Shown piece after piece: positions 39,611 to 40,253 of a DNA stretch of 64,000 nt. Below the pieces are notes generated by a model that saw only the letters and a list, made by a program, of their open reading frames with translations, searched no databases and was not told the origin of the DNA. Positions within the stretch are counted from its first letter, which is position 1. Each line of letters starts with the position of its first letter. Position numbers and translations under genes: made by a program. The stretch lies in the NCBI RefSeq assembly GCF_007750855.1, contig NZ_CP036291.1, positions 5,180,905 to 5,244,904 of the forward strand, given 5' to 3'. This stretch comes from Pirellulimonas nuda (GTDB lineage Bacteria > Planctomycetota > Planctomycetia > Pirellulales > Lacipirellulaceae).

Positions 39611-39690
39611 ACTGGAAAAGCTCCCCCGGTAGGACTCGAACCTACGACAAGGCGGTTAATCCGCCCGCGGCGGACCTGCTCTACCAACTG
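39611..39690 (-). pseudogene. Degenerate tRNA-Asn-like copy (intact T-arm/3' acceptor and D-arm; altered anticodon arm with ATTAA loop and 9-nt insertion; non-pairing 5' acceptor)
   Basis: The reverse complement carries GCTCAGTTGGTAGAGC, GGCGGATTAACCGCC and TTGTCGTAGGTTCGAGTCCTACCGGGGGAG. The 3' half is identical to the genuine tRNA-Asn at 39943..40015. Confidence 0.6.
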
Positions 39691-39930
39691 AGCGGTCAAG
39701 CCATTCGCGGCCGACGCCGGACTTCAGCCACTTCTCCCGCTGCATTGCGAGGGCTCGAGTCGGAAACGACTCCGAGTGGATTAGCACCCACGGGCCAGAG
39801 TTCCGCGTCGTGAACTTGCGTGGGTTGTGAGCCGGATCGTTGTGCTCGGCGACCCGCCGCTCTAGATCGTCGGTCTGGCCGACGTAACGCTTGCCAGTTG
39901 TCTCACTGATGAGAACGTAGACCCAAAAAG
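39656..39930 (-). CDS. GIY-YIG nuclease-family small protein (YhbQ/UPF0213-like)
   Basis: FWVYVLISETTGKRYVGQTDDLERRVAEHN carries the GIY-YIG core. The N-terminal extension in the track (MVEQAAVNRLVVGSSPTGG) is a read-through translation of the tRNA-Asn gene, so the true start is likely a non-ATG codon near AAFWVY. Confidence 0.55.
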
Positions 39931-39942
39931 CCGCAAGCAAAG

Positions 39943-40015
39943 CTCCCCCGGTAGGACTCGAACCTACGACAAGGCGGTTAACAGCCGCCTGCTCTACCAA
40001 CTGAGCTACAGGGGA
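39943..40015 (-). tRNA. tRNA-Asn (anticodon GTT)
   Basis: TCCCCTG-TA-GCTC-AGTTGGTA-GAGC-A-GGCGG-CTGTTAA-CCGCC-TTGTC-GTAGG-TTCGAGT-CCTAC-CGGGGGA-G. It has the same U1-A72 architecture as E. coli tRNA-Asn. Confidence 0.8.
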
Positions 40016-40019
40016 ATAT

Positions 40020-40253
40020 GTCTTATTCTTCTCCGGCAGCTAGCGGTTAATCCGCCTGCGGCGGACCTGCTCTACCAACTGAGCTACAGGGGAATATGTC
40101 TTATTCTTCTCCGGCAGCTAGCGGTTAATCCGCCTGCGGCGGACCTGCTCTACCAACTGAGCTACAGGGGAATATGTCTTATTCTTCTCCGGCAGCTAGC
40201 GGTTAATCCGCCTGCGGCGGACCTGCTCTACCAACTGAGCTACAGGGGAATAT
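40020..40253. repeat. Three tandem 78-bp repeats immediately 5' of tRNA-Asn, each containing a truncated tRNA-Asn 5' half plus a GC hairpin and variant ATTAA anticodon-like loop
   Basis: The unit GTCTTATTCTTCTCCGGCAGCTAGCGGTTAATCCGCCTGCGGCGGACCTGCTCTACCAACTGAGCTACAGGGGAATAT is repeated three times without mismatch. Confidence 0.8.

Follow-up and report, generated by a model that had tools for sequence, protein, structure and literature searches.

A GIY-YIG nuclease gene with hairpin-bearing partial tRNA copies at tRNA-Asn of Pirellulimonas nuda: a candidate selfish cassette related to the Ssn nucleases

The Ssn proteins (cd10448) are single-domain GIY-YIG nucleases of about 94 amino acids (aa) that bind a hairpin, NTS/SRM, on single-stranded DNA (ssDNA) and cut upstream of it (PMC11893778, Chenal et al. 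2025, Nat Commun). In many cases, the gene has the hairpin repeat on either side of it, a layout that those authors termed IS-like. In Neisseria, the Ssn system modulates transformation, and the meningococcal enzyme SsnA does not bind RNA; the role of Ssn outside Neisseria was left open (PMC11893778). Here, a locus of related construction is described from a 64,000-nucleotide (nt) stretch of the Pirellulimonas nuda genome, the whole of which is referred to as the window. On its minus strand, a tRNA-Asn gene adjoins a small GIY-YIG nuclease gene and is accompanied by partial tRNA copies, each of which carries the same type of short hairpin, and the association recurs at tRNA genes of distant bacteria. 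The reading favored here, with a probability of about 0.5, is that a compact selfish cassette, widespread at tRNA genes, has one of its copies at this locus; it would consist of an Ssn-like nuclease, its cognate hairpin and pieces of tRNA and would be spread and amplified by host recombination. A literature search found no described element that joins a tRNA, a GIY-YIG gene and a hairpin, and, as far as that search shows, this is apparently an undescribed, tRNA-linked branch of the Ssn-type nuclease-hairpin systems.

Along the minus strand, the locus reads as a promoter-like site, a leader hairpin, three upstream units (U1 to U3), tRNA-Asn(GTT), the GIY-YIG gene and a disabled tRNA copy (copy D). 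The functional tRNA at 39943..40015, already recognized in a preliminary description of this DNA, is called by ARAGORN (with its end at 39942/3) and matches the Rfam tRNA model with 68.1 bits (E 4.8e-14). The three perfect 78-base-pair (bp) repeats that had been seen on its 5′ side, each with a tRNA 5′ half, were recovered by Tandem Repeats Finder as an array of period 78, with 3.4 copies at 100% identity (39988-40253). U1 (40172..40249), U2 (40094..40171) and U3 (40016..40093) are identical minus-strand units, with hairpins at 40221-40207, 40143-40129 and 40065-40051, respectively. Each is composed of the first 28 nt of the tRNA, then TCCGCCGCAGGCGGA, then TTAACCGC, and then a 27-nt spacer. 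It had been proposed that the spacer reproduces the upstream flank of the tRNA; that resemblance follows from the tandem repetition itself, as the true flank of the first unit and the unit spacer have ATAT alone in common. The 23-nt variant segment occurs four times in the window against 0.01 expected, and all four hairpin matches of the window are at the tRNA-Asn locus.

The nuclease gene (39656..39940, minus strand, 94 aa) starts with a TTG at 39940, 2 nt past the 3′ end of the tRNA, whose 3′ strand reads GGGGGAG there, and stops with a TAA at 39658-39656. Within its 3′ end lies the cassette hairpin TCCGCC-GCG-GGCGGA (39660..39674, minus strand), at tRNA position 28|35 as in U1-U3. The same hairpin belongs to copy D (39617..39693, minus strand), which is made up of 19 nt of D-arm, the hairpin and the tRNA 3′ half, overlaps the end of the nuclease gene and lacks a 5′ acceptor strand that could pair. 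Over 43 nt, from TTAA to GGGGGAGCTTT, this copy is identical to the real tRNA. Such a downstream copy, with the insertion of the units, the 3′ part of the real tRNA and an unpaired 5′ acceptor, had been described beforehand; its hairpin loop differs from that of the units by 1 nt (CGG for CAG). The nuclease gene takes its final 13 codons (…SVGRAGPPRAD*) from the D-arm and hairpin of copy D, so that residues ~85-94 (VGRAGPPRAD) are encoded by tRNA-derived and hairpin letters, and the stop codon of the gene is the TAA of what had been called an ATTAA loop.

The encoded protein is 99% identical to an annotated Pirellulimonas nuda GIY-YIG protein and contains a single GIY-YIG domain (Pfam PF01541, E 1.6e-14) over residues 8-77 of 94 aa. 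Residues Y8, Y19, R29, H33 and E69, which we take to be the catalytic residues by the GIY-YIG motif, are invariant or nearly so in the family alignment. The AlphaFold model is confident, with a mean predicted local distance difference test score (pLDDT) of 84, and shows a GIY-YIG fold; its best fold matches are UPF0213 BH0048 and Slx1, and the C-terminal tail past residue 87 is predicted to be disordered. Purifying selection acts on the protein, with a ratio of nonsynonymous to synonymous change (dN/dS) of 0.15 relative to the closest relative and of 0.03-0.10 between tandem paralogues (dS 0.10-0.16). A family profile search returned 2,982 relatives, with none from Neisseria among the best 120 of 2,982.

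The link to Ssn comes through a GIY-YIG gene of Azospirillum that was found in the plasmid search and is flanked on both sides by canonical Ssn-type CGTCATCCCCGCGAAGGCGGGGATCCAG repeats. Compared with this protein, the family profile gives an hhalign probability of 98.9% (E 1.9e-17) at 39% identity. The Azospirillum gene itself (L083 1340-2000, Azospirillum lipoferum plasmid AZO_p3), with its inverted CGTCATCCCCGCGAAGGCGGGGATCCAG pairs, is located between sufB and sufC of an Fe-S operon. As in Ssn, the nuclease of the window is a single GIY-YIG domain of ~90-100 aa, thus of less than 150 aa and with no separate DNA-binding domain. Its gene is also flanked upstream and downstream (three times upstream, once at the 3′ end) by a short hairpin, GC-rich and with a loop of 3 nt, that co-evolves with the enzyme, which amounts to the same IS-like order of repeat, gene and repeat. 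There are differences as well. The window hairpin lacks the conserved CGTCA upstream flank and falls outside the SRM consensus; the C-terminal motif of its clade is REKWLKSGVGREWL, compared with REKRLKKWNRDWK in the Azospirillum relative; and the gene contains one hairpin within its own 3′ end. Unlike the Ssn repeats, these hairpins are not dispersed over the genome, with 4 in the 64-kb window, all of them at the locus, and 5 in 475 kb of flanks of related loci, and they are embedded at a fixed tRNA position in partial tRNA copies, whereas the word tRNA is absent from PMC11893778. On this comparison, the system of the window would work like an Ssn-hairpin pair, of which it appears to be a homologous but distinct, tRNA-resident variant.

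Recurrence at tRNA genes was followed in a genome scan that used one genome per species (~185,000 species genomes) and a pattern-limited search. It yielded 144 relatives and 79 loci, in 52 of which a same-strand tRNA lies at most 200 nt upstream of the nuclease gene; in 5 others, it lies directly downstream. A metagenome scan with a D-arm-plus-hairpin pattern added 93 further stretches with the same layouts, and in genomes and metagenomes together, the nuclease family adjoins a tRNA gene in ~170 related loci. The occupied tRNA is Asn in Planctomycetota and Phycisphaerae, and also in metagenome-assembled genomes (MAGs) labelled Armatimonadota and Dehalococcoidia. Ignavibacteriota, Bacteroidota and Zixibacteria have the family at tRNA-Met, Chitinophagales at tRNA-Ser, and candidate-phyla bacteria at tRNA-Lys or tRNA-Pro. 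Different tRNA genes can be occupied within one genome (L045 and L065). An intact tRNA is always kept, one per occupied locus, while loci with no adjacent tRNA have a remnant of a tRNA 3′ end directly before the nuclease gene, other islands having been inserted between the two. Pseudogenised and truncated copies also exist among the loci.

Two gene layouts are found: tRNA-gene-copy, as in the window, and copy-gene-tRNA. The latter occurs at two tRNA-Lys loci that belong to the same genome and at one tRNA-Asn locus, L130. The 78-nt units of the window look like the second layout minus the gene.

The hallmark common to these loci is the 15-nt hairpin TCCGCC-NNN-GGCGGA, which replaces 3-17 nt of a tRNA copy and thereby disables that copy. 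Perfect-stem hairpins of the form CCGCC-N3/4-GGCGG number 109 in the 77 kilobases (kb) adjoining the nuclease genes and 5 in 475 kb of flanks, an enrichment of ~135-fold. The position of the hairpin within the tRNA copy is fixed for each lineage. In tRNA-Asn, the junction is 28|35 (positions 29-34 replaced) in every upstream and downstream copy. In tRNA-Met, it is 12|19 (in the D-loop), 58|62 (in the T-loop) or 38|49; in tRNA-Lys, 23|32; in tRNA-Ser, 27|45, with the whole anticodon arm replaced; and in tRNA-Pro, 24|33 or 28|46. The preliminary description had recorded a CCGCC-GCA-GGCGG hairpin as an insertion and had seen a retained, non-decoding anticodon arm in the stem after it, with the loop ATTAA. 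Comparison between loci shows that TCCGCC-NNN-GGCGGA is conserved and the stem GGCGG-ATTAA-CCGCC is not. The ATTAA stem-loop was rejected as a conserved feature, since the other tRNA types have no such stem and carry the hairpin elsewhere: in the Met, Lys, Ser and Pro loci, it sits in the D-loop or T-loop or takes the place of the anticodon arm.

The stem varies in ways that preserve pairing at the same tRNA position: TCCCGGCGCGCCGGGA, TCCGGCAG..CTGCCGGA, TTCGCC..GGCGAA, GGTCGCCGCGGCGACC and TCCCGACGTACGTCGGGA. These variants track the nuclease lineages, and the upstream and downstream copies of one locus mostly have the same variant. The hairpin is no coding artefact, since loci of the copy-gene-tRNA layout have it outside the gene and its loop is free to vary. 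In the tail of the homologues, GRA[SG]PPxAD, only the codon x varies, which is the loop of the hairpin; thus, it is the DNA hairpin that is conserved and not the peptide. A C-terminal protein motif GRAxPPxAD was considered and rejected, as it is translated D-arm and hairpin DNA, is absent in copy-gene-tRNA loci and is predicted to be disordered.

Several loci show further forms of the hairpin. A second GIY-YIG subfamily (RERQIKSMKS..WIRE), with TCCCGGCGCGCCGGGA as its own variant, uses the same tRNA-Asn junction as the main subfamily and forms tandems with it (L009 3500-4400, L024 1-900). The second unit of L024 has a 16-nt variant in place of the 15-nt one, which shifts the frame and removes the TAA stop; this looks like gene conversion between units. 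Moreover, secondary or nested hairpins of the same type are present in the T-loop of downstream copies that are already disabled (L026 4230-4360, L085 3240-3340, L004, L005, L013, L016, L028), which suggests that tRNA-like DNA can acquire the hairpin independently of the gene.

The pieces of tRNA on the two sides mirror each other. Among pooled tRNA-Asn loci, the median identity of the 5′ half to the real tRNA is 100% for upstream copies (n = 75) and 60% for downstream copies (n = 72); for the 3′ half, it is 45% and 90%, respectively. Hairpin and spacer are bracketed by two tRNA 5′ halves, and nuclease gene and hairpin by two 3′ halves; in effect, each block that was inserted has a perfect direct repeat of one tRNA half at either end. 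Arrays are found on both sides. Among 90 tRNA-Asn loci, there is one upstream unit in 36, two in 6, three in 3, four in 1 and seven in 1, with periods of 59-142 nt, and the arrays of nuclease genes reach 12 copies of a 368-bp unit. This supports the earlier proposal of a tRNA-derived module that was repeatedly duplicated or converted. The artefact of assembly that had been named as its possible refutation is not what related genomes point to, as they carry such repeats with other unit lengths and copy numbers.

The largest array is that of an Ignavibacteriota MAG (L044 1-4801), in which each of 12 tandem 368-bp units comprises a terminator-like hairpin, the nuclease gene and a copy of tRNA-Met with the cassette hairpin. 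The disabled copies of this locus are called by ARAGORN as tRNA-Met genes of 78 nt, with the anticodon at position 38, and such calls are likely to give rise to false tRNA annotations. In a low-GC relative (L085 2430-2940), the upstream units measure ~200-211 nt, and each has a copy of the tRNA promoter (TTGACA-17-CATAAT). These units are true local duplications of flank and 5′ half, unlike those of the window. In some public assemblies, N-masked runs fall exactly inside the arrays (L051 4343-4440, L084 2548-2875, L001 ~915-1004), and copy numbers are unreadable there.

Close relatives show how the locus changes. In the closest one (83% aa identity), the cassette occupies the same syntenic site, next to an ion-channel gene, and its downstream copy has a broken acceptor strand and accumulates substitutions. 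Pseudobythopirellula maris, a cultured relative, has 1 upstream unit, with a recognisably homologous spacer, and 2 gene units, compared with 3 + 1 in the window; the copy number of units thus varies between genera. As for the sequence that follows the hairpin, the window units read TTAACCGCTAG, which is that of a common Planctomycetota tRNA-Asn variant (CCGCTAGG) and not that of the resident tRNA (CCGCCTTG). The reverse combination of post-hairpin sequence and resident tRNA is found in L029 and L030. The TTAACCGCTAG mismatch, in which only 3-5 nt are informative, may indicate a foreign origin of the hairpin-proximal part.

By analogy with the characterised Ssn enzymes, we infer a mechanism in which the nuclease would bind the hairpin on ssDNA and nick beside it. 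The resulting break would lie inside tRNA-derived homology, and host homologous recombination would then use a tRNA gene to repair it. Crossing over within the 3′ half would give the tRNA-gene-copy layout of the window and crossing over within the 5′ half the copy-gene-tRNA layout, either of them regenerating one intact tRNA. Repeated events, or unequal exchange between repeats, would produce tandem arrays as well as clean excision. Under such a scheme, the three 78-bp units would be gene-less units of the 5′ side, analogous to non-autonomous derivatives, and may have been amplified recently when the 28-nt repeats recombined unequally or slipped. The tRNA halves, for their part, would act as portable homology arms, with which the cassette could occupy the same tRNA in distant lineages. 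Of three roles previously suggested for the copies, that of sites for the neighbouring GIY-YIG nuclease fits best, given the co-occurrence of hairpin and gene in >100 loci, the covariation with nuclease subfamily and the homology to a hairpin-flanked Ssn-type nuclease.

A number of points weigh against this interpretation. Hairpin binding and ssDNA nicking are predicted from a relative at 37% identity, and the published SRM consensus, HGTCWYN(0-2)YYVSBRHN(0-5)WNVSBRGN(0-2)RNCYNB, has 0 matches in the window or in representative hairpins and 4 in the Azospirillum control, so strict membership in Ssn by way of this consensus was rejected. GIY-YIG enzymes hydrolyse and cannot join DNA; consequently, every step of integration needs host recombination. 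The core of the hairpin is a perfect palindrome, and the active strand is therefore not assignable. The covariation of its stem is equally compatible with an RNA hairpin. No single clean event explains the first origin of the upstream unit, which duplicates the true upstream flank in some loci and in the window shares only the ATAT mentioned above. Among the recovered loci, there is neither a circular form nor a pair of close relatives with empty and occupied sites. Nor was a phage or plasmid carrier found: the phage search and PHROG gave no match, IMG/VR gave one prophage-edge locus and the plasmid search one distant match. Finally, the cassette is inherited vertically in this lineage, as judged from the shared syntenic site in the 83% aa relative, and it could be a long-term resident or domesticated.

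A further-reaching proposal is that the cassette represents an unrecognised class of minimal mobile element of ~0.33 kb, with a bare ssDNA nuclease, a 15-nt hairpin, two tRNA arms and no recombinase. It would integrate, excise and amplify at tRNA genes by host homologous recombination alone, after hairpin-directed nicking, and could cross phyla by way of universal tRNA homology. This is put forward tentatively, as possible rather than probable. The secondary T-loop insertions suggest, as a corollary, that the hairpin can be written into single-stranded loops of tRNA-gene DNA.

Classical free-standing homing is an unlikely explanation. According to it, the nuclease cuts the intact duplex tRNA gene, repair from an occupied allele copies the gene in, and the hairpin immunises the extra copies. 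GIY-YIG is a classical family of homing endonucleases, the hairpin always removes part of the tRNA sequence, and tRNA halves flank the gene like homology arms. In phage T4, the GIY-YIG enzyme SegB cuts within a tRNA gene cluster (PMC2330249) and can drive segmental amplification (PMC13096335). T4 SegB and similar free-standing homing enzymes therefore resemble the present nuclease in having their gene among or next to tRNA genes and in being tied to preferential inheritance and segmental amplification of the tRNA region (PMC2330249; PMC13096335). By contrast, Seg enzymes possess a DNA-binding domain, cut duplex DNA and have neither a cognate hairpin nor hairpin-disabled tRNA copies. They are also phage-borne, whereas the window nuclease has no phage match and one prophage-edge match in viral contigs. 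The protein described here is a bare catalytic domain of 80-95 aa, with no DNA-binding domain like that of duplex-cutting GIY-YIG homing enzymes, and its nearest flanked relative is of the ssDNA-specific Ssn type. A duplex-cutting enzyme would cut the intact tRNA that adjoins the nuclease gene at every occupied locus as well. Furthermore, a mere disruptor would not keep one 15-nt sequence across Asn, Met, Ser and Lys copies, nor would it show compensatory stem changes that track the nuclease lineage.

Distinctly unlikely, too, is a domesticated host function, that is, a stable and vertically inherited device at the tRNA locus that serves, for example, in the control of recombination or transformation or in interference with tRNA-targeting integrases. 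The conserved synteny with the closest relative and the purifying selection on even old tandem paralogues, given above, would be expected of such a device; transformation is what Ssn modulates in Neisseria (PMC11893778), and integrase islands often abut these copies. The distribution is patchy, with those 144 matches in the pattern-limited search of the ~185,000 species genomes, and runaway arrays of 12 gene copies, pseudogenised and truncated copies, and the occupation of different tRNA genes in one genome (L045, L065) all speak against a settled host function. In PADLOC, the nuclease had insignificant matches only and was assigned to no known defence family.

The question of RNA function depends on how the locus is transcribed. 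A promoter-like site (TTGATG-16 nt-TAGAAT; 40283..40310, minus strand) lies upstream of the whole array, and there is no second site of that kind on the minus strand within 39450-40420. Similar CTTGAT..TAnnnT sites were read directly in related loci, upstream of their arrays. With no promoter of its own and a start codon 2 nt downstream of the tRNA, the nuclease gene probably belongs to one transcript with the array, tRNA-Asn and copy D, and expression of the nuclease probably rides on the tRNA promoter. At the junction (39938-39949), the GGGGGAG of the tRNA resembles a Shine-Dalgarno sequence, and in relatives, the gene starts 0-17 nt after the tRNA. Once 3′ processing of the tRNA is done, the nuclease mRNA would be nearly leaderless.

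Placed between the only promoter-like site and the tRNA, the units are thus probably transcribed, and one might take them, together with copy D, for tRNA-like or hairpin small RNAs that serve as decoys or regulators or that affect the processing or stability of the tRNA-nuclease transcript. The covarying stem and an architecture kept across deep lineages are in agreement with this. Such a function is very unlikely, for the tRNA-like parts decay where they are not common to the real tRNA, the downstream copy has no pairing acceptor stem and gathers substitutions in the closest relative, where its acceptor is broken, and the Rfam tRNA model matches none of the partial copies, copy D included, even at E<=10. 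Folding of the units, which had been recommended as a check, showed a stable hairpin and unremarkable whole-unit z-scores (-0.9 to -2.4, no better than the -2.6 to -2.8 of the real tRNA). SsnA of meningococci, as said, binds no RNA (PMC11893778), and the extra T-loop hairpins in dead copies look like DNA-level events. The tRNA-like small RNA and the decoy, the two other roles suggested for the copies, accordingly found no support.

Scars of integrase islands at tRNA-Asn, or misassembly of short repeats, are effectively refuted: tRNA genes are common integration sites, tyrosine-integrase islands adjoin some loci and short-read contigs often break at the tRNA-Asn locus, but the nuclease, with no integrase, is the only gene between the copies, 5′ halves are duplicated, which is not an integrase product, the same hairpin junction recurs in ~170 independent loci, and independent assemblies, complete genomes among them, have arrays of differing periods. 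The view that this is not the usual integrase scar, held from the start, is hence upheld.

Other known elements are alike in one respect or another. Tyrosine-integrase islands and prophages insert at the 3′ end of a tRNA, regenerate an intact tRNA and leave a repeat of the tRNA 3′ part at the far end, as is seen here. The cassette unit differs from them in having no integrase and a length of only ~0.33 kb, in duplicating 5′ halves upstream as well, and in the hairpin that replaces part of the extra copy. An integrase-type tRNA island was rejected because there is no tyrosine or serine recombinase in the unit, where the GIY-YIG gene is the only domain-matching open reading frame between the tRNA and copy D. 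At some loci, integrase-type islands do lie between the tRNA and the cassette or after the last copy (L001 1000-4300, L018 3900-6350, L082 5100-6400, L092 150-700), and cassette and tRNA can thereby come to lie kilobases apart. For these islands, the duplicated tRNA 3′ halves seem to be additional places of integration.

The IS200/IS605 and REP/RAYT-BIME systems also pair a small enzyme with hairpins recognised on ssDNA, and they too have gene-less hairpin units clustered near the gene. Their HUH (Y1) enzyme forms covalent intermediates and rejoins DNA, which a GIY-YIG hydrolase cannot do, and they have no tRNA-derived arms; membership in IS200/IS605 or REP/RAYT was rejected, the protein being GIY-YIG and not an HUH (Y1) transposase. 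Group I introns with homing genes in tRNA anticodon loops are a further instance of a selfish nuclease gene tied to the anticodon-loop position. By contrast, the tRNA of the window is uninterrupted, Rfam finds no ribozyme and the gene comes after the tRNA and not inside it. A group I intron was thus rejected as well: the tRNA is continuous, and a permissive Rfam scan of 38500-41500 gave no intron family. That scan returned the real tRNA only; YrlA reached 22.6 and 16.1 bits against a threshold of 69 bits, and snoZ206 and asX4 were far below their gathering thresholds.

Two further features of the window may be mentioned. Between the promoter-like site and the first unit is the leader hairpin, a perfect 8-bp stem of CGGCGGAA-ACG-TTCCGCCG (40256..40274, minus strand). 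Its arms contain the words of the cassette hairpin, GGCGGA and TCCGCC, in swapped order; it is flagged as terminator-like on the plus strand and gives a weak, sub-threshold match to YrlA. The other tRNA gene, tRNA-Arg(ACG) at 19025-19099, has no hairpin, partial copies or GIY-YIG gene.

If the favored reading is true, the cassette would account, at the level of annotation, for the recurring assembly breaks and pseudo-tRNA arrays at tRNA-Asn in Planctomycetota, and for false tRNA calls such as the 78-nt tRNA-Met genes that ARAGORN reads in copies with the hairpin. Integrase islands would find additional sites in the extra tRNA 3′ halves. A large branch of the Ssn proteins (~3,000 relatives by profile search) would be tied to a concrete lifestyle, namely residence at tRNA genes together with hairpin-disabled copies. 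It would also provide enzyme-site pairs for site-specific ssDNA nucleases (TCCGCC-NNN-GGCGGA and the variants TCCCGGCGCGCCGGGA and TCCGGCAG..CTGCCGGA), and the spread of hairpin repeats and nuclease genes would become directly testable. Should the cassette moreover prove to be a minimal mobile element, this would be the first biological rationale for the Ssn family outside Neisseria.

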